In this document: piece after piece, positions 6,283-59,791 of the stretch
How positions within the stretch are numbered: the first letter of the stretch is position 1
How the letters are laid out: each line of letters starts with the position of its first letter
NCBI GenBank assembly: GCA_003971905.1
Contig: RSEE01000016.1
Span: forward strand, 186,001 to 250,000
Direction: 5' to 3'
Length of the DNA: 64,000 nucleotides
From: Moniliella sp. 'wahieum'
Lineage: Eukaryota
Made by a program: the position numbers and the translations under genes
The notes under the pieces: generated by a model
The model's database searches: none
What the model was told of the DNA's origin: nothing
The model's input: only the letters and a program-made list of their open reading frames with translations

Positions 6283-7721
6283 CGCAGCCGAGGGCGGGGA
6301 GGGGGAGGGGGGAGGAGGAGGAGGAGGGCGAGGACAAGCGCAAGCGAAGGGCGGAGGCAAGGGGGCGTGCGCGGAGAGGTGGTGCTGGGCGGGGCTGGAA
6401 GCGAGCGGTGGCTTATGCTGGCCAGCGCCCAGCCAGGCAGCCAGGCAGCCAAGCAGCATCCAGCGTCGAGCAGCCACCCTCGATCAGCGGTCGCATCCAT
6501 CCATGCATTCTGCTCCCGCTTCCCCAGCGCGGGCTGCTCTGGCGCTGCGCTGCGGCACTGCCGCCCTGCCAGGCACACTGCATCTACCGTCCAGCGGGGC
6601 TCCAGTGCCAGCCAACACCGCCCCCCTGCCGCCGCAAGCGGGGCAGGATCGCCCTCTCGCCCGCCACCAGTACGCTGCTGCTGTGCCTCGTGCTGCGCTG
6701 CTGTGCCTGGTGCCAGGGCGCGGGGCGCCCTGCCAGCCGAGAGCACACAGGCGCTGTCCAGGCGATCGCACGGCCATCGGGACTCCGGGTGGCAACGCAG
6801 CACACCTGGGCAGTGTCGCAGGTCGCGCCCGAACATCCAGGCGATCGCTGCTGCGCACTGCGTACTGCTGGGGGTTGGCGAGCCACTCGCGGAGGTCGAA
6901 GGCCCATCGGCTGCTGGTCACCGGTCACCAAAGCCAGCCCAGCGACTAGCGACCCCAACTGAGGCACACCATCGGCAACATGCGTGCTCGGTGCGTACTG
7001 ACGTACTGAATATTGAATTGGTCATGCATGCCCCATAATCGATAATCATGCACATGGAAAATCTCATGCAGTCTAGTACAACACTTGTTATTTTCTCGGC
7101 TTCATCATATCCCCACTCATTTGTCCTCATTTCCTCCTATTTCTGGCGCCAATTTTGTGTTTTTTGAAAGCTGGTACTTATAATGGAAAAGCAGTAATAA
7201 GGAGCAGATGTTGGATACGCTGATACCCTGTTTTGCAAACGACTTAAGGGCGCGAAAACGCGAAAGGCCCATAGATATTCAAACCGTTTGCCCCTCCGCG
7301 ATACTAATATAGTAGGGACTAAAAGGACATCCATAGTATCTTAGTCGTTTTGTAGCAGATCATATCAATATTGATAGAACTAGTGACTACAGTGACTATA
7401 GAGCCTGATGTCTAGGTGACTATTGCAGTTATTCAGGCACCAATTCTTGAGTCTCTTTCTCTCCCCCTACTCTTTACATGCCGCGGGCGCCTTGCACCCG
7501 ACGCCTTCTAGCGCCGTCGCCGGTCATCCGCCGTTCCTAGGAGGGTGAACTCCGAAGAATAAACTGTTCCTACCCTTCTATTCGCCCTTACACTTGCGTT
7601 TTGATGTGCGTGTCAGAAGAATGCTCCACATCATATGATGCTCACTGAGCCGGGATTCCCATGTGTATTCCGCGGTAATTCTGTGCCCCTCCGTGGTATA
7701 TTCCGTAGCTTGGATTCCGTG

Positions 7722-7818
7722 GCATACCGTGTTCATACCGTGTCTCTATACCGTGCCTATGCCGTGCCTATACTGTGCCTATGCCGTGCCTATACCGTGC
7801 CTATACCGTGTTCATACT
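7722..7818. repeat. Tandem minisatellite of ~11-bp unit (ATACCGTGCCT)
   Basis: Repeated ataccgtgcct/atgccgtgcct/atactgtgcct units seen directly. Confidence 0.85.
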
Positions 7819-8097
7819 GTTGTATTCTATGGGATAAGTACTTTGAACGGTTGTATAACGTGTAGGAGCGACAGAAAGCGCTGAGCAATTGCGGAAGCGA
7901 GAATATCACCCAAAGTTTCAATTCTGTCTGTCTGCTTAAAATGCATCCTGGTGGACTGGTGCTGGGAACATGTGAGCAAAGGACAAATTCCTCCCCAAGG
8001 CACAAGATTAGATTCCTGTGGAGACTTCAAGCACCAGAAGCTGGGGTACTCGGCATCACCTTGTCTTCATCACACCCCGGCCCGACTTGGTCATCCG

Positions 8098-9104
8098 ATG
8101 CGCTTTGTGCGTGCCTTCTCCTCATCCGCAAGGGCGAGTGCGGCGGTGCGGAGCGCACTGATCCTGTCGCGCGCACCTACTCTTCTGCGTGTACCTACAG
8201 AGCTTGAGCAAGCGGTGTACATGTACAACCAGAAGCTCAACCGCCACCTTGCCGTCCCGCTCGTCAAGGACTTCTATTTCAAGCCTGGTTCTTCAGACGA
8301 GCTCGCTACCTCAAGGCCGAGGCCGAGCGTATTAAGGTTGACTTCACTTCTATCCTTAGTCGCGGGGACTTGAATGTTGCCTCAGCCGCTGTCACATCTA
8401 CGGCTGAGGGCTCTGCCGACGGCTCTGGTTCGGCCGAAAATCCTACTGTGGCCAACCCTGTAGAGTCGGTGATGGACATCAGCACCCAGAGATCGGAAGA
8501 AGGGGCTGATGCTGCTTCGATTGATTCGTATACCTTGCAATCGCGTTGGACAGATGCAGATGAGAAGAACGGTCAGACGTCGCTCGACCGTGCAGGCGAC
8601 CGGACTTTGTACTTTTGCTGGTTAACTCCGAAGATACAGGCAAGTCATGGAGGTTTCCCTCAGACAGTGTAGACCTAGCCACCAAGATCAAGTCGGTTCC
8701 GGACAAGAGCGAGGATGCTGCCGAGGACGCGATCATGCCAGGAAGTGACGCTAGCAACAGATTCCCTTCTGCTGCCTCTCGCGCCGTGACCAAGACTTTG
8801 GGCGAGACAATTGACGTATGGTTACTGAACAACTTACCCGTGGGCCACTTGAATACCGACCATGGAAAGGTGTGTTGAACAAGGCTGATCAAATGTGGAA
8901 TGCTAACATTAGTTTCGTTCGCTCCAGATCTACTTCATGGCCGGCCACGTGATTGCGGGCAATGCGGACAGAGAGATTGTGCGCAAGGCGGGCACAAAGT
9001 ACGCATGGCTTAAACGCGAAGAAATTGAGCAACTCTTGACAACGGACGGAACGAGCGAGGACAAGGACTACTATGGTAACATTGCCCACCTACTCAACGA
9101 ATAG
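8098..9104 (+). CDS. MRPL17: Mitochondrial large-subunit ribosomal protein mL46 (MRPL17-like); frameshifted
   Basis: Presequence-like MRFVRAFSSSAR; ILSRAP..FYFKPGS; SRWTDADEKN..SLDR..DRTLY; WRFP; VWLLNNLPVGH; intron 8870-8927 (GTGTGT..GCTAAC..CAG); YAWLKREEI; TAG at 9102-9104. Confidence 0.85.
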
Positions 9105-9692
9105 ACCGACTCCACTTCCTTGCACGCATCATCGCACAGCTTCCACTTATCCCCGTCCCTATAGTTGGACATCGATCTAGCAATGGTCAACACAAGCCTC
9201 AGCAGCATAACCCGCTGGTTCCGCACGCCTGGCTCTTACGGACAGCAGGCTTCAATGATTAATGACCGGTCAGGTGACCGGTGAACGTTGAACGCGCTTC
9301 ATGCACCCACGGCGTATTCTTCTCGACGTGAGCCTACATTGCAACCTTGTTTGAGGACATCTCCCATGGGTTGCATGCGTTCCAAGGGCACCGCCTATAT
9401 TCCAGATGGTTGGACGACGAGACTCTACCGCATGTCCATAGATTTGACCCCTACAAGGGTAGGCATGCAATTTTATTTTGTGCATAGGGCAGGCACAGAA
9501 CCATCGCTCGAGCCGAGAACAGCCCGCGCGACCAAGATCCGTCCAGGGGGTAAGGACCAGTGGGTACCTTAACAGAGGGGTGGGCTGTATGACCCTCAAA
9601 TGGCGCTGAGAAGGAAAAAGAGCAGATTCTCGCACAACTCGGAAGAAGGAAAGAAAAGTGGAGCGAGGGCAGGGCGATACATCTCAGCCGAA

Positions 9693-10309
9693 TTAACGGT
9701 TGCTCTTGGCCACACGCTCAAGCTCATCCTTCTTCTTAATGGCGTACGAGTTGGACGAGCCCTTGGCGGCGTTGATCAGCTCGTCAGCAAGGCATTCCGA
9801 GATCGACTTAACGTTGCGGAAAGCCGACTCGCGAGTGCCAATAGTCAGAGAGAGATCGCCTGGTTAACACGGCGAAGAGGGGACACGTCCACGGCCTGGC
9901 GGCGGACAGTACCACCCGAGCCAATGCGGGTCGAGTCCTCACGGGGGCCCGTGATGATGGCGTCAACCAAGACCTGAATCGGGTTCTGGTCGGTAAGGAG
10001 CGAGATGATCTCGAACGCGTGAGCAACGATGCGGACGGCCATGAGCTTCTTGCCGTTGTTGCGGCCGTTCATCATCAGAGCATCAACGAGACGCTCAACA
10101 ATGGGCATTGAGGCCTTCTTGAACGCCTTGGAAGCGTACCGGCCAGCCGTGTGAGGAACGTAGACGGCGTTGCGGAGCGAGATGTAGTCCTGCAGCGACA
10201 GGTCCTTCACCTCGACGTCTTGCACGTCATACTTGCCGAAAAGCAGGACAGCGCCCTTAGGGGCGGCAACAGCCGCGGCCTCCTTGGGGATGGTTTGCAC
10301 GGTCGCCAT
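9693..10309 (-). CDS. RPS5: 40S ribosomal protein S5 (uS7); one frameshift near 9845
   Basis: [54 protein letters not shown], ends VAKSNR*. Confidence 0.98.
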
Positions 10310-10604: not shown

Positions 10605-10619
10605 TAGGGTATAACCCTA
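10605..10619. promoter_or_regulatory. Inverted TAGGGT-ata-ACCCTA motif in the RPS5/RPS28 bidirectional promoter
   Basis: Inverted repeat seen directly; resembles the Homol-E/telobox-like motifs of ribosomal protein promoters (inference). Confidence 0.4.
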
Positions 10620-17590: not shown

Positions 17591-19058
17591 TTAATCAGGG
17601 GGTGGCCCACGGGCGGACCGGTTCAGTATGTACGGCCACTTTCGTCCTCAACAGAGATTTGAGATGCAAAGCTTGAAGCTTGAAGCACCGCCCTCCTACC
17701 TATACTTGGCATTGGCGAACGGAAAGTGTGTCATTCATACTTAGTGATATACTGCTGTCGATGATCGATAAGATCTGAGATCATCGATCAGGCCTCAGGG
17801 GACCGATGACCGCGGGTGACCAGAGTGACCGGTGACCGACCACACGAGCTATCTGTTTGTGCGGCAAAACGAAGAGACTGCCCGTGCCCACCGGGCACCA
17901 GTCGCACAGCCCCGCGCCCCCACAGTAGAAGTTACTGTTCGTGATCACGGGTCACAATTACGGGCATGATGCATTTGTGCGCGCGCTCTCGTCTTTCTTC
18001 CCACGGCATGAACACCGGCCTTGTGGGCAGTGGCCGATACTATTATGAGTCTCGGGCGCACCAACATCCCGTCCCACAGCAGAAGAGCCCCTATACGCAG
18101 GTGAATTTATCTCGTCAAAACAGAACCTCGCTGGTGGCATCCCCAGCTTAGCGCCCAGTCGGAGCACTGAGTTCTCGATGGTGTTGTATCGCACACCGAG
18201 CTACAGAAGAAACCAGAGAATATTTGTGCCATTCAACGAAGACAAGGAAAGGACGAGAGGCTCATCAACTGATTAGAAGATTGAAGCTACTTATTGGACT
18301 TTGAAACATTGGACTCAACCTTTTGAACTGCAAGCGTTAGAAGTTCAACACTAAGTAAGACGCGGTCCCCTGCTTCGGAGCTTCTTCTTGTGGATCCGTG
18401 AACGTACAGAACTGGTCCGCTCAAGCGCTCAAGAACTCAAGCTCCAAGCTTAAAGGTGCCCACCCACAACCCTGCAAGCAGCGCCAACCAGCTCCCCACC
18501 GCCATGTGGCCCTTGAGACCCGTGTGCAGGCGCCACATGGGCGGCAGGGGTTTGTGTTGCCGATCACATTTCCTTCAACATTTCACATTGGGTGTTCGGC
18601 TGTCAGTCACCGAGCACTGTCAAGTGACAGCATCACGCTGACATGTGACTGACTTCTACTTGACTTGGAAGCTTGAAGCCTCGAAGCTTGAAGCTCGAAG
18701 CTATTAGTGAAGCTAGCAAGGAAGCTAATGAAGCTTGGAGCTTGAAGCTTGACCACTGCGCCCGTAGGCCGTAAGGCTGTGTAAAGGCCCAAGGCTGAAG
18801 GCCTAGTAATAAGGCGGTAAGGTAAGCGCTACAAATATAAACCCGCTTGAAGCTGCTGTTACAAACAGACCCATACACTCAGATAAGATAGAGACCGCTG
18901 CATCTCGCCCATCCCTAGTCCTCCCGGCTGAACCAATTACTCCTGGCACCTGGCGAAAAACAACTATAGTTAACAAGGCAAAACAAAATGTGGCACACGT
19001 AGACGTATAGCATTGAGCAAGTGCACAGAAACAACCAGACGCTCGAAACGCGGCACCC

Positions 19059-20726: not shown

Positions 20727-23270
20727 AGTGAGCGGTGGGCTGCAAGGCGAAGGGGAAGCCGAGCTCACTGGGCGATCAGCCTGATGGAGCAGAATGGCCT
20801 CGGGAAGGTTGCGATACGCAGCGGAATGTGGAAGCGGAATACGACGGGTGAGCCCCCAGGCCCAGTATTTTTGAAATTGCAGCTGCCCCTTTCCTACGGC
20901 TGCCGCTCCAGCCAGAAAAGTTAATATAATGGGGACGATGATTGATGAACACCTCTGGTTCTCTGGCGATCCGCCAGCCGAGTGCCTTGACCTACATGTA
21001 TTGGCTCCCCAGTTACCCCTCAATCCTGAGCCTGAACCCGTAGGCGTCACCCTGATCATGGGTACGTCGGGAACGCTGTCCCCCTCGCTTGCCCGCTGCC
21101 TGCGCCTCTCGGCAGGGTCAGCAGAGAGGATTATATGTGTTTTTTTTTGTTTTGTGTTTGTGGGCGCACTCTGGGCACTTGCGTCGCCCTACCTATATGC
21201 GGCTGCTCTTGGGCTTTTGCATACATCCCTCTCAGCCCTTCCCTTCTCTCGGCGTTCAGCGCTGCACAGGGTTCCCCTGATTTGACACAATTCTCTACCA
21301 CCACACTTGTCAAGAGGAGAGAGCTGACAGCAAGACAGTATAGTCCTTTAGCGTTTGATCATATAAGGCTTTCTGTTTATATTTGTTACGACGTCTCATA
21401 ATGGGAAGATGCCTGCCTGTACATGACGACCTGCGCTGGTTCACTTAGGACCCTAGAGAAAGCATTGATATGTATGTGGCGAAAAGACGACCCACCGTCA
21501 CGCGTCACCACGCTTCTTTTGCTTTCATATATGGTCGTGTGTATAATACCAGACCATGTTCACGCGGTCGCTTTTCGTCTGGGTTAGATATGGATATCTC
21601 CTTACCCCAAAGATGCGCCAGTAGCTCCTGATCTTATATCGACTTGTAAGGAATCTTTGCGTCTTAATTCTGCCCTCAATGTCGTTGCACCCATGTCCAT
21701 TCTTCCCCCAGAGTGATGGCCTTTTCGTTTCGTTCTTTTTTTTTTCTCCGTCGTCCTTGAGACGCTCATTCATCCGCTTTATCCAGGCTCTCTCTCTCGC
21801 CCGACAAGGTCACAAATCCGACTATATATAATATTGTCCGTAGAAGTTCGTCAAAGTAGACCTCGAAGGTTTTCTCTATTTGTTACTAGGCCAAACGATT
21901 GGGCATGCTGTGTACTAGGCCTAGGGAGCCGGACGGGCAGAAGGATGAGGAGAAGGTGATGGATTGGAGCCATAATTGGGCTTGGGTACAGAGGCATCTA
22001 GATAGGAGGCACTAGGCACAGGGCCAGGGAGGCAGACAGGAGAAAGTGCAGGGAAAATGGACAGTGACACGCTGGGAGACACCCGCAGCGTGGAAAAGCC
22101 GATGAAACCGAGGTGAAACCTGGTTTACCGACTGGGAGCCGGAGGATCACAATCAACACATGCCGTACTTTTCCGTGGGTGTGTATATTGCGGTATGTAC
22201 CTTAATATGATGAGCCGGTGGGTTGCGGATCCTGCCCCCCGGAGGGTTCAGGGGACACGCTGTGCCCACTTTGATGTAGTACTGAAGGCTATGGACGAGA
22301 AGACACAGGCAGTGAATTGGTTATAACGTAACAAGTCCTTGTGAGGTAAAAGTGATGCGGGTCGACTCTTTTGTAAGAGGCAGCCCCAAAGATGATTACT
22401 AAGCTGATTAGTTTCTTGAATGTGCTCCCTGTATGAACCAGGAATCGAGACGATCAACGGGTACCCGCTTCTACAAACACGAGCAATTCCCGATATATGT
22501 TCAGACTGACGCGCAGACTAGTATAATACCTCCTTCTACTTATGTACCCTATGCCCCCTCCATACAATCTCTCCCATGTGCATAAATAATACCATAGGAG
22601 GACCATACCCAAAGTGTAGGTGCATAGGGGGGCTCAAGGCTCTGCAATTTTCATTCAACACGGCCATACATGCTTATCCTGCGTCGGGGAAATTCTTGAC
22701 AAAGACAGAGAGTATATAGGCTGATGAAGAGTCGATTGAATTGATATTCTCCACTCAATACCCCCAAGACTTCTCTCTCGCATTCGTGCATACTATAAAA
22801 GATTGGAATGGAACCAAGTTGATGCAGCTAGTACGACAAATGTCCTCTTATGTTTGAGCGCTACAGAGTAAATGGGTTGTCTATATACGATGATATATAC
22901 TGTACTAGGTGATCCCAGCTGCAGAGCTTCCCGTAAGTGGCTCATTCCCCCATAATTCTTCCTGCTTTACCCAGGCCTGAGCTTGAAGCTGATGAGGTCT
23001 CGCCCAACATCTCCGGTCTCACCACCGCGGTGGGTTTTCGGCACAAAACCCAAAGCACTATATGTTTAGCCAGCCTATACAATCCAAGAACGACTATTGG
23101 TAGCCTATTAGCGCACACAGAACGCAACACAGGACGGGACATTTTTCTTTTTTTGTTAAAGACCAGAGAGCAGTCAGCTGATAGTGCACTGCTTTGCACA
23201 TGAGCTACAGAGGCTAGATAATATTGCTGCCATCGGTTCCGGGCTTTTAATTGGGCTACCAGTGCCACTA

Positions 23271-24116: not shown

Positions 24117-24755
24117 CACTATTACAACTCAGTGTGGCATCATACTGCCTTCAATGCCCCAAATCGCACTGCATAGACTAACAGCAGCGTGGCAGAGACC
24201 GACCCCGGTTGCAGAATCCCCTTTTTCACATCTCGGTGTATACCAGCAATCGTAACCATATGTGCTGATAGTGGGGCGGCACAGCCAGACACTGCTGTGG
24301 GCGCGATCATTAAGACACCGTGACAGCCGGACCCAATCCGATGGCAGGAGTCCTGAGGCCTGAGAGCCATTCAACGCAGCTTCTCAAGTTAGGCCTTGGG
24401 CCTTAGTCTTAGGGGTCTCTCTCATCAATCTTCTTTTAACACAATCACTACTGCTGCCAAGGAAGACAACCTTGGCGCATTACTATTACGTGTTCCACCC
24501 TTATAGTTTTGCTTTCAACCTTGAGATCTGAGATATCAATACGTTCAAAGTTCTACGTGCTCGACGTTCAACGTTCAACACAACGTATCGGCGTATTTCA
24601 ACGAGATGTCCTGCCCCGACAGCGAGGAACATTATGCATTAAGTCCGCGCTAAGCGCTAACCCCCCACACTAACTCGGTCTAATAGCCGCCCCATTCGGC
24701 CGACCGAGCCGCACTATTATAATGCTCTGATGGCCTTTGTCCGCAAATAACCCGG

Positions 24756-25005
24756 TGTCACATGTCACATGTCATGCATCGATGCATGTCACTGTTACCA
24801 AGCATCGCCCAAAAACCAGTGGTCATCGATCAAATGTCATACATCATACATCACACATCATGCATCAATTAGCTTCACTGCTTCAGTGACTAGCTAGAGT
24901 GACTAGTGACTAGTGACTAGTGACGCATGATGCAGATACTGCATGGTGCGTGGCGCGACACGCATCACCTGTCAGATCTGTCAGAGCCGTCACGCGTCAG
25001 CGCGC
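24756..25005. repeat. Heptamer palindrome array cluster, T(C/G)A + 4-bp palindrome
   Basis: tcacatgtcacatgtcatgcatc; gtgactagtgactagtgactagtgac; tcatcgatca; tcacgcgtca. Confidence 0.85.
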
Positions 25006-27575
25006 CGCGGCTGTAATTTATTTGTTTGGGGTACTACGTAAGTAAAGGGCCGAAGAAGTTGTCTTCATTGAACGGGGAAAAAAGTAGTGATGAGATATAG
25101 CCGGGTATGGGATAGCATAGCCAAAACCTCATTCATGCGTCATGCATGCATCACGGCTTCCTCTATCTTGCCTCTCTTTACTATCGCATGCACACAGGGT
25201 ATCTTATCATCGTCATGCCCCTCATATACATCTTCACCATCACGTCATGTGCACCTCCCTCTCCTCAGAGCCTCTCTGAGACTGCCTGATCCATTCGCGT
25301 GGAGTCCATATTCTCCGTGATACTGAGTCCCCAACAGAACAACTTTTGGGGTGATAAAAAAGGTACGCATCAATCCCCGGGCGATGGCATGTATCTCGTT
25401 CATGATGTTACCCATTGCCCCTCCTATTTGATTGTATAGCACACCGTATCTCTCTCTCGCACATACGTCGCGCTGTATCTAGTTTACGTGGGGGGTCCGC
25501 CCTGTGTTGGGATTCAAAATTAGGACAAAACACAGTATCAACTATGTGGGCCTTGACCGTAACTTAGTGTATAGCAGGGCTCCAGAGCCTCACACACACT
25601 ACTGCCAGGAACTTGCGACCGCTCTGCACTTCAAGCTTCAAGCTTCAAGCTTCAGTACAGTGCCAGTACTGGACACTGGATGTACTGAGTGTACTATATG
25701 AATCTTGGATCTCAAAGTGGCATGTGAGCGTGGGCAATGAACTTCAGTGTTATTGTTAGCGCAGTTGCACGTTGGTTGTGAGTGCTCAGGCTGAGCGCGC
25801 TGAGTAGAGATGTATTAAATACCTTTTGCTATACTAATAATACGTCTGGCCCAAACTTCATTCTTGAAAAGCTTTTGAAGAAGCTTGAAATTTGTGACGA
25901 TGCCGCGAATGCGACCGTATATAGTCCCTTCATTTTTGTCTGAAGCATGATCTGGTCATGATCCCAGTATATGTATTAGCAGCATGTATCTATGTGCACA
26001 TGCGTCATACGCTCTCTTTCTGTGGTTATCAATTGTGCTTTGGTTTATTCTATCAAGATTGAGAGCCTTAGTCTATAGCCAATGCTCTGTATCAGTGGTC
26101 TCTGTCGCAGGCCTAGCTAGCGATGCTGGCGATGATGGATGGAGATGGCATTCAAGAGCTAAGGAGAGCTAGAGCTATGGGCCTTGATAGGCTCCTGGCC
26201 TGGAGGCCAGTGGAAACCCGTGGAAGGGCCGGAACTCACTGCCCGGTGCGCTGTGTGCATCGGGCCACGTGTCACTGAAGGCCGATGGGCTCTAGACCAC
26301 TGGTGGTCAACAGTCTCTGTACCCTGTTGGGACACTAGTGCGGTGTGCCAAAGGCATAGCCGGACTCTGGCGCTCCCAGCCACTTCCATCCAGCGGCTAG
26401 CTCCGGTAGTTCCGCTCGGGCGGAAGTGTGGCTGGCCGACTAGCCTCCTTCTAGAAGCCCCGGCAGTCGTAGATCTTAGTCTTCTCTCTTCCACTCCCTC
26501 CTCCTCCTCCCTCTCCGCTACTCTCTACTATCGCTCACCAGCAATCAATCCCTATCGTCTATTGACCCCAGTTCTTGATTGCTGTCTCGCTTGGCGTCGG
26601 GATCCGGTCACATCAACCCCCAAGCATAAGAAGAGAGTAACAAAAAGCATGCTGCATATGGCAATAAAAGACAGCTGAACTGTTTTCTCCACCCGTTTAG
26701 GTGGCGCGTGACGGAAGTATTTTCGCTTATGCACGAGCTAGTGACTAGTGACAGTGGCTGACCGGCACATAGATAAACAAAACCGTCGAGATAGTGGATA
26801 CGCAGAGAGCGGGGATATGAGTTCTCTCTCAACCGTAAAATATAAAAGTATGGAGAAAAACGGAGGAGATTTGTTAATGATTTGGTGTATGATGCATAGT
26901 GATCGATGACATGTATCCTCCGAAGATCTGAGGATGTCTGAGGCTCTGACGCCTGACGCGCTGAACATCCTGAGGCCTGGTGCATCATGATACATGATGT
27001 GCATGACGCCTATAAGGCCTCAGACCTCACTGAGGCCTCAGGCTTGGCGCTGCCGTTGAGTCGGAACAATGCCAGTACGTCGCATCATGCATGGTGCATC
27101 ATGCATCGTAAATCGCTGTCACGTCGTCACTAGTGGGCTGCCCCCTCAGTTCAGGCCTCAAGGTACGCAGGCGTACAGACCAACTCTGGGTGAGGAGGTG
27201 GGATGTGCCTGGACAGTGCCTGGACCTGGCCGTGGGGTTTGCTCTGGTCTGGTGTAGTGCATGGCGGGATGTGCGGCGTGCAGCACGCGGCCAGTCGTGA
27301 CGCTTGACGCAAGTCGGCCCGTCCTTCGCCGCGTGGGCCACCCACGGATTTTCGGTCTGGCCGGGACTGGTTAGTATTCACTAGTGACTACGTTCACTGA
27401 GCTCAATACTCAATGTTCCCTACTCTATGGCTTGCAAGCTTCTGAATGCTGGTACATCCACTTTTTTGTATAAAAAACAAAGTCTTCCCCCTCCATTTGC
27501 TTGTCTGTTTCGTTAACCCAACCACAGCCAGCAGCTACCCTGTGCTCCCCCTTCGAGCGCTTCATCTTCTACATC

Positions 27576-33234: not shown

Positions 33235-36200
33235 GTATAGCAAGTGAATTTAAAGGATCTTCCTCTCTTTCGCTAAGCCGCCAAACCGCCCTTCTTTATA
33301 TACCAGGGGAAAGGAGGTTGGAGAGCCGAGAATTGCGATATCACCCCAACATAGAGCAATCGTCTCTCCGTGGTTCTTTCCTCTACGTCTCTATTCTGGG
33401 CCTATAGTCTCGCATTATGTCTTTGAGCCACGTCATTATCGCAGCGCATTCAGCTCAGCGCTCAGACTCAGCCCCCAGGCTCAGCTCTCTGTCCCAATAA
33501 AACCGTTGGAGAGAGACGCAAGCCGATATGGGGTACACGATGGGTTAATCCAGATCCCTTTCAGAGGGCGATGTGGGAAGCTTGGCAACAAAATCCCTGA
33601 GGGCAATGCACCTGTTGCAGGACGATGGATGGGAGGATGAGGGCGAGTAGTCGATCACCACAAGGAGGTGCCTTATCTGCGGCTGTCCTCCGGTAACTGA
33701 GAGGATGATATAATAGCTACTACACTTTCCAAGCTAAAAGGACAAGATATCTCGCACTGTGAACGGCGGAAACATCGCAGAGATAGCTTCTTGTAAAAAA
33801 GCTCGCGAGACGCTAATCCGGTCTTTTGAGTGCATCAGGAAGAAAAAGATGAAGGAGGGAAGCGAGGCGCAACGGTACTCAACCCGGAGGGCGAGAGTGG
33901 CGGGACGCTGCACAGCCAGTTCCGCTTACCAGCGACTTGGCCGATAATGCCATACGAAGTGAGGTCACATGGGACCACACTCCAATAACAGACTGTGATG
34001 ATCATGATTGTCTTTCTATCACAGGAACGGGAATGGGAGGGGTGTCTTGTCTCGGCAGAGGACGTCCGACTGGGCGATCCCCTCTCCTCATCGTTTTCTT
34101 CTCCATCGCAGTGCTGCCCACTTTTAAGAGAAGTTGCAGGATACACTCTGGTGGGGCAGGAAGGCCATGTAATGGCGTATATACCTGGGCGGCATTATTA
34201 CCCTTTTGGGACGAAAGACAGGCTTTACCAGCCGAGCTGCCAGAATTTTGAAGGAGAAGAAGACACGTTACAGACCTCACCCTCAGTCTGCCAAAGTTCG
34301 TTGAAGGACCGGGACAGATCCGGAAGAAGGGACTCAAGGTCCTGTGGGTCAAGATGTGTGAGAGTAGAGGAGAGGATTGTCGCGGAACGTGGTTCCCGAG
34401 ACCAACTGGCCACACAGCCTGAGTCAGGACATATGCTCAAGTTTGATCGCATCACTCGTCAGGGACGCTCTTACACTATGGAGCAGTACAGCACTCAGAA
34501 AAGGTGTGCCGTCTGCTCTGTACCATGCAGATAGATAGCTGAGGACGAGCGCAGAGTTCAGACGGGTCTTGTCACCGAATGACTAAACTCGCTCCAATTC
34601 CAATTCTGCATCCTGTTTCTCTCGCTCTTCCTCTTGCCAAATGCCTTCTGTTTCCTCCCACGAACGATCTTGCCTTTCCCCCCACCTCGGACAGGACCTT
34701 GGTCTCCCTCGTTTAGTCCCGACTGTTACAGGTCTGGAGCAATGAGAACCCCAAACGGCACGAAGGGCGTACTTTGACATGAGTGTCATGAGCCTGCTTG
34801 CCCGGAGGAGGATGCGGCAGCCCGCATTACTCGCATGATATTGCGGCCCACGTACGTGCTGCGACTAACGAGGTCAACAACTATCCTAGAACCCTTTAGT
34901 TGGCCCCTCGGAAGTACGCACCACGAACGTATTTACAACTCAGCGCAAGCGCTGTTCGGGAGATGTGGGAGCAGAGCTGCACAGGAACTGTTCCAGAAGC
35001 TTGACGTTGCTGTAGTGCTCAACTACACTTGACTCTCCTCTATTCCATCAGCCACGTGCCTCCGGTTCACCAAGACAAGCAGGTTTAAGTTCCCCCATCA
35101 CAGCTCTGCACTCGCTGTGCCGTTCCACGCGCAGCATTGCATGTGCAAGTATGTTGGCGTGCTTGGGGGCACATCATGATTTGCACCCTAACCCAGTCCA
35201 AGTTTGATGCATTGCATCAGGGAGTGCGGGTGCCCATTCTTCAGTTCGTATGCCCTCCATCCCCGACACCCACATTCACAATGAACCGACTGTGGAGAGG
35301 AAGGATGAAACGATGAGGCATGAGATCTGAGATCTGATCGATCTGAAAGAAGGCAAAATGCGTACTGAGTACTGTTGATGACAGAGAGTGATGCGACCTG
35401 GGGCAATGCGAGGATCAGAAATGGAGGTGGACCACACGTTGCGGGACTCGGGAACGCAGGAGCGATGTTTGCGTACCGGAGGGTGGTGCATGAGAGCACT
35501 CCAACGCTTTTGGAATCCCGGGAGAAGAAGCTGCTTCGGCAGCGGGAACAAACAGAATGCGACAAGAACAGAATTCTTCCCTTTCGTTCTCTGACGACGC
35601 GACGGTACTATGCCCCCAAAGACGGCGAGCAAGATGTTTGGGCACTGGAGAGACTTAACAATTGCTGAGTCTCACTGGAGATGGTTCTCCGCTCGGATGT
35701 CTACAATACTGTCAGACTCACATCGTGCTAGAGAAGGACCCTTGCCCCACTAGGCCCGTATTATGGCACTATGGCGTGATTCCTAACAGTTGCAGGAGAT
35801 TCTGTGTCCACCTCTCGACCGTGTCCCCTTCCTTCTGAGGTACATGTACCTCCAGTCCGTCCATAGATGTATCCAATCCATCTGCTCCCTTACCTCTTCC
35901 ATCTCATGTTTCCTGGCATCTACCCCGTTCATTCGTATCCACACACGCGCTCTAGTAGTACCTCGGGTATGGACACAGATGGCGCGCACCAGAGGGCCCT
36001 GTGATCTGCTGGCGATTCCCCTGGTTCCCTAAACGGGTTTGGCACCAACAAGCAACATACGCCGAGCGAGGAACTAGGTTATAGGCGCAGCGCGTTTCTT
36101 TGTCCCAGCCTAAGCTCTGTCCAAGCGATATGGTTACCATAGTGACTGGCTAGCGGGGTGTCTCTGGGGGGGGTGCATGGGTAGTGAGTACTGAGTGGGG

Positions 36201-36794
36201 TGCCCGTTGCCCGTTACAGAGGCCGTTTCCATGTTAGTAGTTACTGGATGAGAGTTTGCGACGTTTGCGAGGGAGCAACTTGTGGGTTGCGGGGGTGTGC
36301 GTGACGCGCGCGTCATGGGTTGCGGGTTTTAGTGAGATCCGAGATACAAATGGCTTACTGCGCTATAGTGCAGCTATAGTGCATAGTGACCAAGCAGGAA
36401 AGTTGAAACGGTCGAGGGCTGCGGGTGGAATTAATTGGCATAAATATCAGATATCAGAGCTCAGGCGCTCAGGCGCTCAAATATCATGTGAGACACATGG
36501 GGTTGTAGGCTGGACTGGTGCTGGCATTGCAGGAAAAACTCGGCGAGTAGCTCGCGAAGGGAGGGCGTTAGCATGGTTAGCACCAGCACGGGGGCAGGTT
36601 GTGCTGTTCCCCGCTTGCAGACCAATTCGCATGGGCCAATCCGCACTGTCCCTATGCTGATTGAAATGGGCGCATGGTGCTTGTGTGTGTGACATACGTT
36701 ACCAGAGAAGGCTGTGTGGGTGGTGTCGTGCCGTGCGGCTGAAACCGTACCCGGAAGGTACGCATATACGAGAGGCAAGGGGTTCGTGAGGACC

Positions 36795-36990
36795 GAGTAC
36801 TCGGTGTAACGTGTACTCATGTTCAACGTTCAACGTTCAACTGAGTACTCAGGCTGAGTACCTGAGTATGCTAAACGTACGTACTGAACGTCTTGAACGT
36901 TGATAATTTGATCGAGATCGCGGTTGGCGCGTGTTGATGCATGATGCATGATGCAATGATGCATGATGCGCAACATGTAACATGTGACCT
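36795..36990. repeat. Heptamer palindrome array cluster
   Basis: ttcaacgttcaacgttcaa; ctgagtactcag; tgaacgttga; tgatgcatgatgcatgatgca. Confidence 0.85.
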
Positions 36991-38134
36991 GCAGGGGAGG
37001 GAGGGAAGGCGCGGAGCAGGAGCATAGGAGGGAAGTACTGCAAAGCGCCAACGGATGAATGTGCCGGTTTCAATGGTGACGGATGTGGGTCGCGGGCAGA
37101 TGTGATGGAAATACGGAGGGAAAACATAGGCGGCAACTAGCAGCGCCACCGCCACCCCTGTGCCTCTCTTGTGGCGAATATGAGGACATAGGATGGGGCT
37201 GGACTTCGACGCAATAACTGACGCGTGTGTGGGCCCAGGGCGACGTAGATCTAGCATTGCGCTCTCTTTTGTGGGTTGTGGGTGTTTTTGCCTCGAGGGA
37301 TCATTAAATCCGCGCCGACGCTCCACTACAGCGGCACCCACCGTCTGTTCGGGCCGTTGTACCCCTTTGCCTGTTGGCGTGGCAGTCCAAAACGTCAGCG
37401 TTACGTGCGTCATCTATAGTGGAGAGGAATGAGACGATTTGAAGCACAGCGCGGCTATGTTCCCACAACCCATGATCATGCATCATGTCTTACTGAAACC
37501 TTCTTTCAATGGATTGCGCGCGTTTTGCCATATGCCCATGACAGTTTACCAGCCCCGGCCCTCCCCCAATCCATTCTCGCCTTGTCTTTGCCTCGGGCAG
37601 AGATGTGAAGCATATGTGACGGAGTATCTCATGTATATCGCGCTGCTCCTGCCCCTGGACCCACCATAGCTTAGCTTGCTGCTTCGTTAGCCAACAGTGA
37701 GATCCCCGTGACCCACGTTTGATACAGAGAGCTGTAGCAGACCACTGTTGTCGGTGTGGCAATTGCATGAAGTGCGACTGTGGATGCCTGTATTGTTCTC
37801 TAGTTCCTTAGGTGACGGTTCCTTTTCGCACTAAGAGATTCTCATGGAGTGGAGGCCAGGCCTTGGGGTAAAGAGTATGTGAGTCGCGTGCCTCATGTCT
37901 CGCTTGAAGCTTGGAGTTGACCCGTGCACAGTGACCGTGCGTGAGATTGCGATGCCTGCGGTTCCAAGGTATGCTTGTGTACTGCAATGGGCACGCGGGG
38001 CCTTGCCCGTGTGCCTGAGATATTCCATATCCGGTATATAAATCCCTGCAGTATTGGAGGTGCTAGGGTCCGATATCCTCATCCCCCGGCGTTCGTTTCC
38101 CCTCTCACTTGGCCTCTCATCCGAGTATACCACC

Positions 38135-41633: not shown

Positions 41634-42935
41634 ACCCAGAGCATGTTCGCTCTAGACTGGGAAACCGACTAAGCCGGCCGATACCTTGGGGGTTTCTGAA
41701 TATATAACCTCACTGCTTTTTTCTCAATATGCTATGAGAAGCATCTCTTCCACTATAACATTCCCGGCATCGACAGAGTGCACCTGCTTTTATCTACTGT
41801 CATCTCAATTTCAATTGTGATGGTCCGCTTTCGAGCGCTGAATTGACGTTTCTTTACGCACGATGAAAAAGTGTCCCGCTTCCCTGTTACGACCATTAAA
41901 TGCGACTTGCCTGATGATTCTTTCGAGGTGTCTGTTGAGAGAGAGAAATGGATGTAAGGGCAGTGCGCACGCATATCAGTGTACTGTGTAGGCGCAAGAA
42001 CTAATATGTATCATCTTCGGGGACAAGACTGTGGACGATAGTAGATTTTGCCTTCTCTCTTTTCCTCTCGCGCTCTTCGACGTCCTGCGCGTGTCACACA
42101 GTGGCACTTCACATGTTGGCAGAAGACGAGGAGTGGAACAGTCGGGGTGACAGATGAGGGAAACAACGGCCTTTTTAGTATACACGGGAGGCAGAATTGG
42201 AAATTGGAGTAAGCTTAGTCAATCGGCGACAAGGAGACACATGACTATAGGAATAAAACGACAGGGTGGGCCATTGCAAGATTATGAAGAGGATGGTAGC
42301 AGTTTCGCTTGGAAAGACCCTTTGATTTCATCCCAATCAAAGGCTGTGATTGGGACGGTTTGTATACTGCATCCATGTCATTGACAGAGCAAGGCTGGGA
42401 CAGGGAAACGCTGGCAATAGAACATGTTTTCGTCGCATACCACAACCCACGTACAACGTCGGTGGTGATGTCAATGATCCAGTTGGCCATATACTTCCGC
42501 ACTCATGGCTCGCGCATTGCTTTTGACGCAAGAAATTTGATCCAATTTCCAATTCTGCGTCTCGTGCCTGTCGCTGTTGCTGGATCTCCTTCTTTTCATG
42601 GATCATGAACACCCGAACGCATCTTGTCGATGCGCACTTCTTTTTCATCACTTGGTAGGATATGCTCATGATGCATGATGGCGCACGGCGAGATGTCTGC
42701 GAGAGAAAAGCATGTGGTAGCTCGGCTTGCTTGCGTGGCTTGGTAGGCCATCGTTGTTCGGTGGGGAAGGAGATTTTGGATTGGATTGTGCGAATGAAGA
42801 TGGTGGTCCAAGGGACAGAAGGGGGGACGCGGTCACGTGGATGTGAGGATGGACGGCATCGCTTGCCATTAGCTAAGTGGCTTGCATGGACCACGGCGGC
42901 TTTGACGGCTGAAGTAAGCGGGTGCGGTAAGTTAC

Positions 42936-43058
42936 ACGTTCAACACGGTACGTACACAAACGACGACGTTTCCTCGACGTTCGGTACGTTCAACGTTACT
43001 AGCACTAGTTCTCTCTAGTCACTAGTCAAATCACTAGTCACTAGTCACTCTAGTCACT
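42936..43058. repeat. Heptamer palindrome array cluster upstream of the C2H2 TF
   Basis: acgttcaacgtt; ctagtcactagtca; tcactagtcactagtcac. Confidence 0.85.
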
Positions 43059-50022: not shown

Positions 50023-50165
50023 AGTCACTAGTCACTAGCCACTTCGGTACTAGTCAAATTATCGACCCCAAGCACTGGCAAACGATCGGTCAGACCGGTC
50101 ACCGGTCACCGGTCACCGCTCACCGGTCAAACTGCACAAGCTTTTGTTCGGTTCACATGTTCACA
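50023..50165. repeat. Heptamer palindrome array cluster
   Basis: gtcactagtcactag; accggtcaccggtcaccggtcacc; tcacatgt. Confidence 0.85.
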
Positions 50166-50315
50166 CTTGCCCCTGTGGGCAGGGAGGGTAGATAGAAAGC
50201 GTGAGTGTGACGCGTGACGCTGAAGCTGCAAGTAGGCTTGCCGTGCTACCCCCCTATGGCTGGGCACCCACATTCGCCCTCTGGAAAGCATTGGACAGGA
50301 ATATCGAAGGCCAGT

Positions 50316-51672: not shown

Positions 51673-52084
51673 GGATGGGTAAGGAGATGGTGGTGGGTTC
51701 GGAGCGCGAGGGGGCTGCGGAGCTGCGGGGCGCGCTGAGTGTCAGCGTGTCGAGGCTGAGCTCAGCTCGGGGCTGATCAGGGTGACTTAAAGCTTCAAGT
51801 GTCGTAGCACTCGCCTTTAAGCTTTAAGCTCAGTTGGAGCTAACGTGATTGACTGAAGCGCAGGCGCCGGAGACCAGTGGCTTACATCAAACTTTCACGT
51901 GGACCGCACACCGAGTACGCGGGTTACCGCCTCCTTAGGGCTTAGCCTAAGCGCTTAGCACTCGTCGCACTCTGCCTCAGGCCTGCGTCAGCGTCACGCG
52001 TCAGGCATGCATCAGGCCAGGATCAGACAGGGTTTGAATGTGACATTGGCAGTACACAGGTAAAACTTTAAGGTTCACTAAGGT

Positions 52085-55000
52085 TCACCGGTCACCACAG
52101 CGATAAAACCCGTTCAGCTTCAAATACCTGTGCCAGAACCAGGCTCTCTGTCCTCCTGCTCCGCTTCCATCCATCTCCTCATTACTACCGTCCCGACCAT
52201 CCCCATCCCCCGCAAGGCCAGCTACTGCAGACGATACATGCATGTATACTGACCATTCAACACACCCTATCCTGTCCGTTGCTCCGGTAGCAGCGCACCC
52301 ATCGCCGATCCCGGTCTTGGAGGCACCGCGGCCAAGGGGGGAGGACAGCGTCTGAGCCGACCGGCCCGGCTGCGAGTGCGACGGCATCATCGCCACCGCC
52401 TCAGTCGTGGGGCCTGGGGGCCACCCTTCGGACCATGGAGGCGGAGGCTGTTTGCCTGACGCTGGTCGCAGCAGTGTCACACACCGTCGTACCATATCCC
52501 GCGACACCTTGTCTGCCCCTTCGACCATGTCGGATTGCAGAACAGGCGTCAGGATGCGGGGCACATGCCAGAATGCATCTTGGTACGTCAAAATCGTCGT
52601 CACTGCCCTGTTGGCAGCAAATGCCTCGCTCTTGTCCGCCATTGAGACTTTGGGATAGAGGAGATTGGGTGCCATGACCAAGGCCAGGTTGGGAAGATCC
52701 ATCTTGCTCCCTGACCCTTCGTCAGGAGAGGAAGATGCAAACGTAGCCACCCAACGAAGGAACAGGGACAGGACCTCCAAAACGTCCCTGTGCACGCGTG
52801 GGAGAAGGATGGCGATGGCTTGTTAGGCGCACTCGCTCCTCCTCTGGCTCGACAGCTTGGGAACGTACAAACAGGCAGTGCAGACGGAATGTCAATAGCG
52901 GATCCGGCAGCTCGTGCAGAAATTTCTTGAGTAGCACCGCTAGCTGGATTGGCGAGTCTTCCTCCAGGGCAACCGTTTGGTCCTTGTCCAACGCTTCTAC
53001 CTCCTCCTTCAACTGGCGGATGTTACCGTTCTTGCGGAAGATGCCTTCGACCCTCATATCCTTGTTGCGCATCGTGTGGATCAACTGATCCAAAAATTGA
53101 GGGATGATCAACTCCCCCCCATACCAAGCGTAGAATGAACGCCCCCGCGCTCAATCAGGAGTTCAAGGGGGACACCGAACAGGCCTTTCTTCTTCACCTC
53201 TTTCTTGTCCTTCTTGTCAGCTTTAAACCAGCGACTCCAAAAGTTGTTCTTGCGAGTCTCAATCAAGTCCAAGAGCTCATCCAACTCTAAAACCCCTTTC
53301 AGTGGACTGTGCTCGAGATAGGCCACGGCCATATGCTTGATCGCCACCAACTCGTTTTCGCCCAGTTCCGCCACAAGTCGGGAAGTATGGAACGACTCCA
53401 CCTTGGCTTTGCTAGGCAGTGGGTCTGCGAGTGCTGGTACAGGCGAAGCCGGTGGAGCCGGCGAGCTCCAGGGTGGTCGTGTCACAGGAGTGCTGGTCGA
53501 CGGTGAGAGTGGACGGTGGAGGGCGAAGCGGTGGGGAGGCCTGGCGACGGGGCATTGCCCTGGGCGAGGCAGGAGGAGGGGAAGCGGGAAGGGGGGCGGG
53601 AAGGGGAGGAGGCAGTGGACTGGGGTTTGCCGCCCTCCTTGGATCGGGAGGGACCAAATGTTTGGCTTGGAACCGGTCGAGCAAGCGTGAAAGTGCGACC
53701 CGCAACAGAAACGCATACTGTTCCAGCAACGAGACCGCCTGTACCCCCCCGCTCGCGCCAGGACCGGCACAATCAGGGCAAAAGATCTTGGCTTGGGTTC
53801 CGATCCAATCAAAAAGTCTTCTGCAGAGTATCTCCCACCCGCCTCGAGAGGGGAAGAGCCACAGACGCTGCAGCGAAAACAGTTGTGTGCCAACGCATAT
53901 TGATACCGCGTCTCCAGCAGGTATCCTCAATTGGCAACGCACACGCTCTGCACCGGTCTGTCCATTCACCTCCGCCTTCAGGCTTAAGGTGGCGCGGGAT
54001 ACTGGCGAACCCATATGGCTGGCTCTCGTCGGGCTCCAAACTCTCTTTACCGGCAAAAGGGAAAGTTGGTCGAGAAAGTGGTTAAGCCCATTGGGTTGGC
54101 CTGGTGCAACTCAGTAAGGCCAGCAATCAAAGCAGTTCGTATGATGGCCTTGAGCTCAACCGCCATGCCGCTAGGTCCATCTCTGTCAAACGGATCGCCG
54201 AATCCATCTCCTGTGACTTGGAAAGAAGGAGGAAGAATTTGACGATTTTGCGGCAGAGGGTGCGGGCATGGGCAATGAGGCCGCAGGTGGTGGCACAGCC
54301 AACGAGGAAAGAAGGACCTCCACGTGCAGATGAAAGCTTGAGCAACACAGATCACGTCTCCAAATCGTCGGTCCGACACATCGCGCATGATTTTCATGAC
54401 GAACGTGGAGGTTGATTCTTCAAACGCACTGAGGATGGTCCAAATCCGATACACGCGAAGCTCCACAGCTTGTTGCTGCGCCGCAAGCGAAGCAGGGGTC
54501 ATTGTCTCTTCAATCAGTAATGCATCTGCGCGCACTGGACCAAAGGGTGTCCACTTCCTCCACTGGAGCAGGGTCAGGGAGGCAATCGACGGAACAGCCA
54601 TGCGGATATTCCATAGCTTGTGAGCCATGTAGCAAACGCCATGCCATGCAGGACCGCCTTTGATAACCACAAGCTGGTCCAGGATGGCCTGCTCGCACCC
54701 AGGGCAGCGTGCGGCATGCCGGGTGGAATAATGGAAGGGACAGAGGATCAGGTTGGCATGCACAAAGTATTGGTCGAGTGGCGTATCGCACAGCGTGCAG
54801 GTGAAGTGCTCCAGATGGTACTTTCGCCCGCCCGCCTGAATCGCACCTGGCGCGCCCGGAGGGAAGAGGACGCACACCGGGCGCATGCGAGCTGGGCATG
54901 ATGCTCCTCACAAAGAGCAATGCGCGGGCCGCCGTTTGGGGCCTCGGCAGTGAAGTACTTGGCGCCGACGTTCCGCCCGCATTCCTGCGCGGGTCAGCAG

Positions 55001-57966: not shown

Positions 57967-58615
57967 GATGGCAGAGGTGGTGACGATGGCTGCGTGACTG
58001 AGTACCGATTGAGGATGGAAATTGGATGGGGATGCGAGTGTGATAAGTGGTTGAAATCTCTTACAACGCTTTTTATTTCCGCCCCACCACTCCACCGGGG
58101 GGGGGGGGGACTCGGGCCCTCAGGCCTGAGCCTGGACCTCAGGGCTCAGGCTGAGCGCGCTGAGTTTCAGGACTGGGAGGGGGGTGGGCACACGGGCTCA
58201 GCGCTCAGGGCGCTCAGGCCTGCTTAACCTGAGAGCCCAAGTCCTAGTGATGCATCAATGATGCTGGATGAATAATGATCGATGATCGCGATTGCTGGCT
58301 ATTCCGGCCATTCATGGCTATGCAGGCTATGCAGGCTATGCGTCTGAGTCCCACAGGTGTAGGAAATCCCAGAGTAACCTCTGGCAGTGGCAGGCGAGCA
58401 AGGCAGGGGAAGAAGCGGCGTGGAAGCAATCAGGGGGAAGGAGCCCGGAGGCGCAGCAGGAAGGGGCGGAACCGCCCCATCATCCGCATATCAGCGCTCA
58501 GCGCGCGCCCAGCCATCGCTGCTATACAACATACGAGAACTGCACGGCCCAGACTTGTTAACAGCACAGTTTATATTGTAGTCCTCAAGGGGGCAAATTC
58601 CCTAGAGGGTAGAGC

Positions 58616-59396
58616 TTAGAGCTTCTTGGCCTGGACCAGAGCCTCCACTTCGGCAATAGCGTTGTCGAGGATCTGCTTCTGGAGAGAAGGGTCCTTAAGC
58701 GCGCCCTGCACTTGGCTCACCACAGTCTTGGCCAGCTCCTTCTGCTCCTCGTCACGAACCTGCGCCTCGTACCGCACCCACGAGTCAAGCACCGTCTTCA
58801 CCTCAGCGGCAAGGGCAGTCTTCTGCTGCAGTTCGAAAACCTGGGCCTCAGTCTGAGCCGTGTCCTTGGCCAAGGCGTACAGGCCCTTGGTCACATTCAC
58901 AACGTCCTTCTGAGCCTCAACGGCAGTGATCCGGTCCTGAATCGACTGGGCGTGGCGCTCACGAGCGTCCGTAAGCATTTGGGTAATACGCTACATATCC
59001 AACATTAGTACTCTTGTCCACCGCGCAAGGAAGCAGAACCAATAAAGAGAGTAGGAAGACGTACAGCAGCGCTCGAGTTGGCCCACTCATTAAAGGGACC
59101 ACCCCCCTTCTTGACAATCGTCGTGAGGACAATCAAGAACCCGGCAAGGATGACGGTGTCGTCGTTCAGAACGTAGATCTCGTTGGAAACGGCAGCAGCG
59201 AGCAGTCCACTACCCAGGGTAAGCCAGCCGGTCTTGGCCACCACCGAATCACCCGGCAGCAGGTCAATCAGGGCCGACGCTTTGGTGGCCGGTGCGGGCT
59301 TGGACGAGGAAAATCGCACCTGGCCCACTTGGCTCACCGTGGGCACGGCAGCTGCGAGACGGGGTGCCGAAGAAGCGTGCGCGTAGCAATCGACAT
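58616..59396 (-). CDS. ATP4: Mitochondrial F1Fo ATP synthase subunit b (subunit 4)
   Basis: KASALIDLLPG..KTG..SNEIYVLNDDTV; intron 58991-59064; EVKTVLDSWVRYEAQVR..EQKEL; one frameshift in the presequence. Confidence 0.95.
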
Positions 59397-59791
59397 GATG
59401 GCCAGCGGTGGAGGAGAGCCAATTCGATCCGGCTTTGGCCGAGGTCCTGGCAACTGGGCGGGCTTGCCAGCTGGCGCATTCTCGCAGAGGGGCAGTGCAA
59501 AGCATCCCGCAGCGGGGAAGTGTCGCGCTGACGAAGATTGAGCGGAATTGGGATTCCGTCCCTCTCTCGCAACAACGCGCAACCCTACTGGGGTGCTCAG
59601 CGCGCTCATCCTGCGCTGTAAAATCAACCATCGATGATCACCGATCAATGATCTGAGAACTGGCGTTGGCATTATGATAGCGCGTATATATAACGCGTTT
59701 TGCGGAGAGCGCGTTCGCCAGCGATGTAGTCGGTCAACCAGAGAGAAAGGCGGCTAGGATGCTGACGAATTGACTATACAAGTCAATCTTC

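Follow-up and report, generated by a model that had tools for sequence, protein, structure and literature searches.

A palindromic heptamer rule anchored on T-N-A triplets in the intergenic DNA of Moniliella sp. 'wahieum'

A window of 64 kb from contig RSEE01000016.1 (assembly GCA_003971905.1) of Moniliella sp. 'wahieum', from which every count given here is taken, carries between its genes short units in which a palindromic tetramer (the core) stands between two copies of a T-N-A triplet, most commonly TCA or TGA, with a period of seven bases. This palindromic-heptamer pattern is real and very non-random, and it is apparently a lineage-specific mutational signature. Based on its anatomy and location we tentatively propose, as a reading in which our confidence stays somewhat short of even, that the units are mutational scars of staggered breaks targeted to T-N-A, likeliest the visits of a cut-and-paste transposon, extended by repeated hits and by slippage. 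The original prediction for this DNA had described intergenic period-7 arrays of T(C/G)A spacers and variable palindromic cores; to it we add the direct copying of the triplet, the T-N-A anchor, the strict length of 7 bp, the single units, the chaining of unlike cores, the match of the flanks and the location both 5' and 3' of genes.

Palindromic tetramers between directly repeated triplets

The N4 is palindromic in 62 of the 126 matches of the window to T[CG]A-N4-T[CG]A. As the null we used dinucleotide-preserving shuffles of the window (200, with 100 further ones giving the same result), in which the total of matches averaged 71.0 and that of palindromic ones 4.39 (standard deviation 2.02, maximum 10). 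Since the 64 non-palindromic matches are at background, the excess over the shuffles is wholly palindromic. Fourteen of the 16 possible 4-bp palindromes serve as cores, among them CTAG 9 times, CCGG 8 times and TGCA 7 times, and they occupy 29 of 51 TCA...TCA and 25 of 46 TGA...TGA pairs, any other pair of flanking triplets giving at most 6 palindromic matches. Strong enrichment is limited to a core length of 4, as palindromic cores of 2 nt number 16 (16.6 in the shuffles), those of 6 nt 4 (1.07) and those of 8 nt 3 (0.33), and directly abutting triplets are found 80 times with 72.8 expected. When all 6-bp palindromes are counted, the sole class in excess is that with A first (292 versus 187 expected), the classes with C, G and T first standing at 242, 239 and 209 versus 287, 286 and 194.

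Among short direct repeats of periods 4-14 the largest excess is at period 7, with 171 runs of at least 5 versus 53.3 expected, the remaining periods being likewise above the shuffles (73-138 versus about 50-54). Of these 171 runs 46 obey the rule, 25 have the triplet without the palindrome and 100 have neither; in the output of Tandem Repeats Finder 17 of the 28 period-7 rows obey it, the consensus units being judged by eye. The enrichment of palindromic cores over shuffled DNA that the original prediction called for is borne out by these counts and by those of DNA poor in open reading frames (ORFs) given below, and the arrays it cited are present: AGCT at 17674, 18743 and 25631, CTAG at 24900, 26742, 43019-43038 and 50025, CCGG at 9263, 17826, 50099-50120 and 52085, and the other cited cores too. 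The chains that it quoted, tga-ttaa-tga-ccgg-tca at 9256 and tca-catg-tca-catg-tca-tgca at 24758, are exact, and the only incomplete examples are those at 17758, 17772, 42986 and 59630, in which either the second triplet is missing or the core is imperfect.

The middle base of the two triplets is identical in 54 of the 62 units (2.1 expected) and complementary in 8 (2.3 expected), indicating that the triplet is copied directly and that the unit is not a true palindrome. Accordingly, in registers of at least three triplets the middle base is uniform in 13 of 15. The T(C/G)A spacer of the original prediction holds as the commonest form and fails as a limit, the anchor being better written T-N-A, as 14 of 38 cores with TAA or TTA on at least one side are palindromic. 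The ratio of TWA to TSA (W, A or T; S, C or G) is ~0.07 in palindromic units versus 0.12 in the background, and the scarcity of TAA and TTA units follows from base composition. Two-copy heptamers with palindromic cores are also seen with other spacers, namely TAA (24647-24660 and 36972-36985), TTA (51815-51830), TCG (47213-47228) and TAG (58610-58624).

The units fall into 49 loci, of which 38 are single 10-bp units, nine have two units and two have three. A triplet is found between two palindromic tetramers 49 times versus 7.3 expected, the tetramers being identical in 26 (0.5 expected) and unlike in 23 (6.8 expected). Length is kept strictly: among 5-nt direct repeats with an inverted filler of 2 nt, 31 start and 33 end in T[CG]A, and the corresponding counts for other fillers are 1 and 3 (1 nt) and 1 and 1 (3 nt).

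The rule extends into the flanks. In 23 of the 29 isolated single units the period-7 match continues at least 2 bases past a triplet; the left side shows this in 14 units, the right side in 14 and both sides together in 5, the chance of such an extension being 1/16 per side. As the core is palindromic, a period-7 extension is equivalent to a half-core that is the inverted copy of the dinucleotide next to the triplet. In two of the three unlike-core chains (at 17781 and 9275) the flanks match on both outer edges; these chains, GATCATCGATCAGGCCTCAGG (17779-17799) and GGTGACCGGTGAACGTTGAAC (9273-9293), match at both edges although their two cores differ, for which duplication followed by point mutation is hardly sufficient. 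In 25 of the 49 chains the two bases immediately outside are complementary to each other, compared with 30% when every one of the 1996 T[CG]A sites is taken, and this is the expectation for the target of a symmetric enzyme. Decayed or variant spacers (TAG, TGG, TCG) and amplified non-palindromic cores (TACA) are present as well and set a limit to the simple rule.

At 36290-36312, 25129-25153 and 35205-35221 these triplets form part of longer symmetric structures, among them a TGA and a TCA enclosing an 8-bp CG palindrome, a TCA with the 8-bp palindrome TGCATGCA, and TGA-TGCA-T-TGCA-TCA.

Distribution of the units between genes

The near-absence of the arrays from coding DNA, which the original prediction had noted, is evident in the 21 ORFs supported by Pfam (14,995 bp), as they hold 1 of the 62 palindromic and 10 of the 64 non-palindromic matches; the lone palindromic unit, at 52085, lies at the stop codon of the RhoGAP/LIM gene. 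ORF-poor DNA, defined as stretches without any ORF of at least 120 aa (17,274 bp), contains 41 palindromic units versus 1.38 expected (standard deviation 1.14, maximum 6, 200 shuffles), a density of ~2.4 per kb. All three types of spacer hold units: divergent 5'-5' ones at 7.0 kb and 24-27 kb, tandem ones at 42.7-43.0, 52.0 and 58.1-58.5 kb, and convergent 3'-3' ones at 9.25 kb and, if the ORF at 48335-49324 (+) is a gene, at 50.0-50.2 kb. The pattern thus marks dispensable DNA generally and not promoters. The patches are the following.

6918..7374: three single units, cores CCGG, ATAT and ATAT, in the divergent spacer of the NRPS-like (non-ribosomal peptide synthetase-like) gene (-) and MRP-L46 (+)
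9256..9291: two in-register unlike-core chains, TTAA-CCGG and CCGG-ACGT, in the convergent spacer of MRP-L46 (+) and mitochondrial S7 (-)
17674..17835: AGCT unit, TCGA-GGCC chain (17781-17797), in which each outer flank repeats the far half of the neighbouring core, and CCGG unit
18639..18752: CATG unit and a decayed AGCT array (Tandem Repeats Finder period 7, 12.3 copies, 65% matches), 3' of RML2 (-)
21498..21507: single CGCG unit, 5' of RML2
24354..25654: densest patch, GGCC, GATC, ACGT, CATG x2, TCGA, TGCA, CTAG x3, CGCG and AGCT x3; in its 7-triplet register at 24823-24867 the cores are partly non-palindromic (AATG, TACA, TACA, CACA)
26742..27387: CTAG, TCGA, GGCC x2 and CTAG units amid many T[CG]A triplets, with the spacer variants TAG, TGG and TCG
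33455..33464: GCGC unit, ~220 bp from the tRNA-Glu gene
35321..37485: GATC x2, GTAC, ACGT x2, GTAC, ACGT, TGCA x2, TGCA and TGCA, 5' of the cation-ATPase gene (+)
42669..43047: TGCA unit with CTAG units (1 + 2), in the spacer from the 3' end of the ATPase gene to the zinc-finger gene (+)
50025..50217: CTAG, CCGG x2, CCGG and CGCG units, 3' of ArfGAP (-)
51994..52094: CGCG unit and CCGG unit, the latter beginning on the stop codon of RhoGAP/LIM (-)
58120..58500: GGCC, GCGC, TGCA, TCGA and GCGC units, 3' of ATP-synthase b (-)

The stretch 9291-17674 is without heptamer units and holds a copia-type reverse transcriptase fragment.

Origin of the units

That ordinary slippage of one unit is insufficient, as the original prediction had argued, is supported by the 38 loci with a single unit and by the chaining of unlike cores. 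As slippage fails, unlike cores are chained and the excess is purely palindromic, a dedicated sequence-specific generating step is the better reading. To this extent the dedicated mechanism of the original prediction is retained, and its form as a pure fold-back or hairpin is not: fold-back as the sole origin predicts complementary middle bases (TGA...TCA), whereas the ratio of same to mixed middle bases is 54:8.

We propose that dispensable DNA would be subject to a sequence-specific process acting on T-N-A trinucleotides. A single event would add exactly 7 bp, made up of a second direct T-N-A copy and four palindromic bases. A staggered break around the TNA could produce the direct repeat, in the manner of a target-site duplication, and a short inverted fill resembling P-nucleotides would be added as the broken ends are processed. 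The process would most likely be the insertion and excision of a cut-and-paste DNA transposon whose target-site duplication is TNA. As every event would double the local TNA targets, repeated hits would give in-register chains of unlike cores, ordinary slippage may then turn single units into homogeneous arrays, and the scars would survive only where selection permits, in 5' and 3' spacers. The direct copy of the triplet, the exact length, the partly symmetric context, the dispensable location and the clusters of uniform middle base fit a staggered break at TNA with inverted fill. Of the features of a transposon footprint, the window has the direct target duplication of fixed length (same middle base in most units, period strictly 7) and lacks the few fixed fillers from element termini, as its 14 palindromic fillers are correlated with the flanks. 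The feature of a slippage microsatellite, at least two copies of one unit, is absent from 38 of the 49 loci and present in the 11 multi-unit chains, indicating that slippage acts secondarily.

Several known systems duplicate T-N-A. TNA is given as the classic Harbinger target-site duplication (PMC12477816), Tc4 as duplicating TNA within C-TNA-G (PMC11071193), and mariner-type excision as leaving behind the duplication together with a small set of fixed additional bases (PMC4561436). The units share with PIF/Harbinger and Tc4 (Tc1/mariner) the direct T-N-A duplication with any middle base, the partly symmetric context and the non-coding location. They differ from Harbinger in that its excision is reported as precise, from mariner-type footprints, whose extra bases come from element ends, in the 14 palindromic fillers that follow the flanks, and from the known TNA-duplicating systems altogether in that no such element was found in the window.

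P-nucleotides are short inverted copies of the junction bases formed at hairpin-opened ends, as in V(D)J coding joints and in the footprints of hAT, Mutator and Transib. Such tracts are variable, 0 to 4 nt long, and are accompanied by deletions, and the duplications associated with them are of 8-9 bp or 5 bp with another consensus. The units would be like P-nucleotides in having an inverted copy beside the junction, most often of 2 nt, between direct copies of the target duplication; unlike the variable P-tract, their filler is strictly 2+2. A 2-nt inverted filler within a 5-nt repeat agrees with 23 of the 29 isolated units, which can also be read as having a longer direct repeat.

The nearest description that we found concerns Ustilago maydis, for which Ali et al. 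2014 (PMC4081816) mention numerous 10-bp repeats 'suggested to be footprints of past TE activities' (TE, transposable element), citing Laurie et al. 2012 and Schirawski et al. 2010. These repeats resemble the units in coming from the same subphylum, in being small, numerous and situated between genes, and in their length, 10 bp being one TNA-N4-TNA; the likeness is one of description only. A description of arrays of T-N-A and palindromic tetramers in fungi was not found in the literature searched, and the claim of the original prediction that none is known holds for the rule itself and has to be tempered by this mention of transposon footprints.

Several observations weigh against scars of TNA-targeted breaks. 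The 300 longest (at least 88 aa) of the 465 stop-to-stop ORFs of at least 70 aa yielded no transposase domain, and the sole trace of a mobile element in the window is the copia-type reverse transcriptase fragment. Pairs of terminal inverted repeats with identical TNA bounds are at chance (9, mostly arrays, versus 0-6 in 10 shuffles), and an inverted-repeat search of the window returned 42 pairs with no convincing element among them. Harbinger-type excision is reported as precise, leaving one target-site duplication (PMC4561436), and end-derived footprints of the mariner type would need elements with 14 terminal dinucleotides and would leave the flank rule unexplained. The flanks themselves are not fully obedient: the run lengths in the 29 isolated units (3:4, 4:2, 5:4, 6:9, 7:6, 8:1, 9:2, 11:1, length:number) peak at 6-7, whereas a '5+2' rule with random flanks predicts 5; a flank match is absent from 6 of the 29; and an extension of at least 2 bases is also seen in 17 of 43 non-palindromic matches with the same middle base, so that ordinary tandem repetition accounts for some of the flank effect. 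Short tandem duplications, moreover, exceed the shuffles at every period from 4 to 14. Our confidence in the scars is held at the tentative level stated at the outset because the ORF and terminal-inverted-repeat scans found no such element in the window, Harbinger excision is reported as precise and fillers derived from element ends do not explain 14 different cores.

Three narrower models of the event were rejected. Transposon ends as the sole source of the filler (2+2 terminal bases) are out in view of the 14 cores and the flank rule. A 7-bp target duplication centred on TNA is out as well, as both sides match in only 5 of 29 units and the phases of exact two-copy units differ. A hAT-type model, with an 8-bp duplication and one complemented base, does not fit the A...T / T-N-A layout.

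A 26-nt inverted repeat at 42183-42208/42541-42566, with arms that are 92% complementary, 332 nt between them and an AATTGGA doublet in each, is without a flanking duplication and could be a small foldback or a miniature inverted-repeat transposable element (MITE)-like element.

A stricter version of the break is conceivable, in which an unusual transposase or a host nuclease-polymerase pair in a basidiomycete would break at T-N-A, re-copy the triplet and write a 4-bp palindrome from the neighbouring dinucleotide. We regard such a precise TNA templated-insertion mechanism, undescribed so far, as doubtful, though worth keeping in mind. Alternatively, the units may be a special microsatellite, in which a heptamer consisting of a 6-bp palindrome and one further base forms slipped hairpins and expands more readily than other heptamers, so that the palindromes would reflect a bias of expansion. 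Period 7 is indeed the top excess among periods 4-14, homogeneous arrays of 2-3 units make up 11 of the 49 chains, non-palindromic variants are amplified too (TACA x2 at 24837), and some arrays exceed shuffles in single-strand folding (z -4.0, -2.5 and -2.4). Yet folding releases little energy (-1.1 to -10.9 kcal/mol), and two of the six folded units or arrays do not exceed shuffles (z -1.2 and +0.6). As the stability of hairpins should favour G/C outer pairs, the enrichment of A...T outer pairs alone, with the spacer inside T-N-A, speaks against this explanation. Single 10-bp units are under two copies and therefore not made by slippage, and they constitute most loci; the in-register chaining of unlike cores also disagrees, and we consider expansion alone unlikely. 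A host process of replication or repair without any transposon, for instance one in which the 7 bp are written by template switching or fold-back filling at a pause or nick specific to TNA, would account for the same anatomy (strict length, direct TNA, flank rule), and it is in line with the ORF and terminal-inverted-repeat scans, which found no transposon in the window, and with 8 perfect 10-bp palindromes with complementary middle bases versus 2.3 expected, which fit an occasional true fold-back. However, TNA is an established transposase target, and fold-back alone gives complementary middle bases, which are the minority (8 of 62). As to a host process with T-N-A specificity, we know of none and found none in the literature searched, and this origin appears to us distinctly unlikely.

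Selection on a cis-regulatory code, by which a protein reads T(C/G)A at 7-bp spacing or the 6-bp palindromes themselves, would agree with the strict spacing, with the near-lack of decayed palindromic cores (non-palindromic N4 are at background) and with the densest patches lying 5' of genes (24.3-27.4, 35.3-37.5 and 42.7-43.0 kb). Nevertheless, no single specificity fits 14 different cores, most loci are single units, and units lie in convergent and other 3' spacers (9256, 50025-50217, 17674-18752, 58120-58500). The feature of bZIP sites, inverted half-sites 1 or 2 bases apart, is not seen: the AP-1-like spacing of 1 base gives 55 versus 70.9 and the CRE-like (cAMP response element-like) spacing of 2 bases, palindromic, 16 versus 16.6. 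Since the triplets are direct and not inverted, they are ill-suited to a symmetric dimer. The dimeric protein on TCA/TGA half-sites that the original prediction had suggested as an alternative is thus not upheld, given the 14 cores, the occurrence in both 5' and convergent 3'-3' spacers and the lack of enrichment at bZIP spacings, and we hold a regulatory code to be quite improbable. An artefact of assembly or base-calling is extremely improbable, as it would ignore coding boundaries, whereas the units avoid exons, use 14 different cores and are set in ordinary unique sequence.

Heptamers with the same triplets exist elsewhere. A metagenome scan with the 17-mer TCACTAGTCACTAGTCA matched at least 130 loci, and the matches listed are mostly heptamer arrays with non-palindromic neighbours (TGACTGG and GGATTAG types). 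The palindromic share of cores other than CTAG is at background among the matches listed, with 52 of 1094 (4.8%), versus 53 of 117 (45%) in the window, and as the neighbours in the metagenomes are non-palindromic, the rule is not inherent to the TCACTAG heptamer. No relative of this fungus was recognised among the matches listed; the loci are probably bacterial, and they resemble cyanobacterial heptamer repeats (STRR). The window shares with such contigs the period of 7, the constant TGA/TCA and the variable tetramer in register, and differs in that their neighbouring units are non-palindromic.

On metagenome contig L062 (5885-6100) a CTAG array is surrounded by two inverted heptamer arrays. 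Each of these keeps its triplet constant and has non-palindromic cores, which are TTCG and TTGG where the triplet is TGA and, on the opposite side, CGAA and CCAA where it is TCA. Arrays of TGACTAG, TGACTGG and GGATTAG occur in many other loci of the scan, among the matches listed.

For now, the pattern is best placed as a variant among the scars that transposons or break repair leave. So strict a rule, in which TNA is kept and exactly four palindromic bases are added, is unusual for end joining and constrains the enzymology. If the units are scars, they would form a readable record of how often and where each spacer was visited by breaks or transposons, and would account for much of the turnover of short indels beside genes in this lineage. 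If the templated insertion were true, each event would make a new target and intergenic DNA would fill with self-propagating palindromic heptamers, a genome-wide fungal counterpart of P-nucleotide addition with a steady supply of 6-bp palindromes near genes. Standard microsatellite surveys usually end at 6-bp units, and heptamers escape them. The same signature may go unnoticed in other Ustilaginomycotina, and it may equal the 10-bp repeats of U. maydis.

Gene content and other repeats of the window

The window is eukaryotic nuclear DNA with a G+C content of 49-62% and multi-exon genes. One protein is 88% identical to the RML2 ORF, and the best named relative, from Tilletiaria anomala, is 52% identical; further named relatives are from Parajaminaea, Tilletia, Violaceomyces and Ustilago, all of them Ustilaginomycotina, and judged by this protein kinship the window is from an Ustilaginomycotina fungus. 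The genes and other features are as follows.

about 2.3-6.9 kb (-): NRPS-like gene
7.9 kb (+): MRP-L46
9.8-10.4 kb (-): mitochondrial S7
10.7 kb (+): S28e
15469-15894 (-): copia-type reverse transcriptase fragment (RVT_2, E 1.3e-07)
19.1-21.1 kb (-): mitochondrial L2 (RML2)
up to 32.8 kb (+): ORC4
33148-33234 (-): tRNA-Glu (CTC), ARAGORN, 87 nt
38.0-41.6 kb (+): cation ATPase
43.3-46 kb (+): zinc-finger / fungal transcription-factor gene
50.3-51.8 kb (-): ArfGAP
52.1-55.6 kb (-): RhoGAP/LIM
58.6-59.6 kb (-): ATP-synthase b

The 87-nt length of the tRNA-Glu gene suggests an intron. A search of the window with Rfam at gathering thresholds gave 0 matches. Short tandem repeats of period 8-33, G-rich and other, are found at 13744-13796, 14267-14315, 14499-14538, 55206-55295 and 7717-7817; they are unrelated to the heptamer rule, and some of them lie within long ORFs without a Pfam match. 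Homopolymers are listed at two sites, a run of 17 C at 47447-47463 and one of 15 G at 57863-57877.

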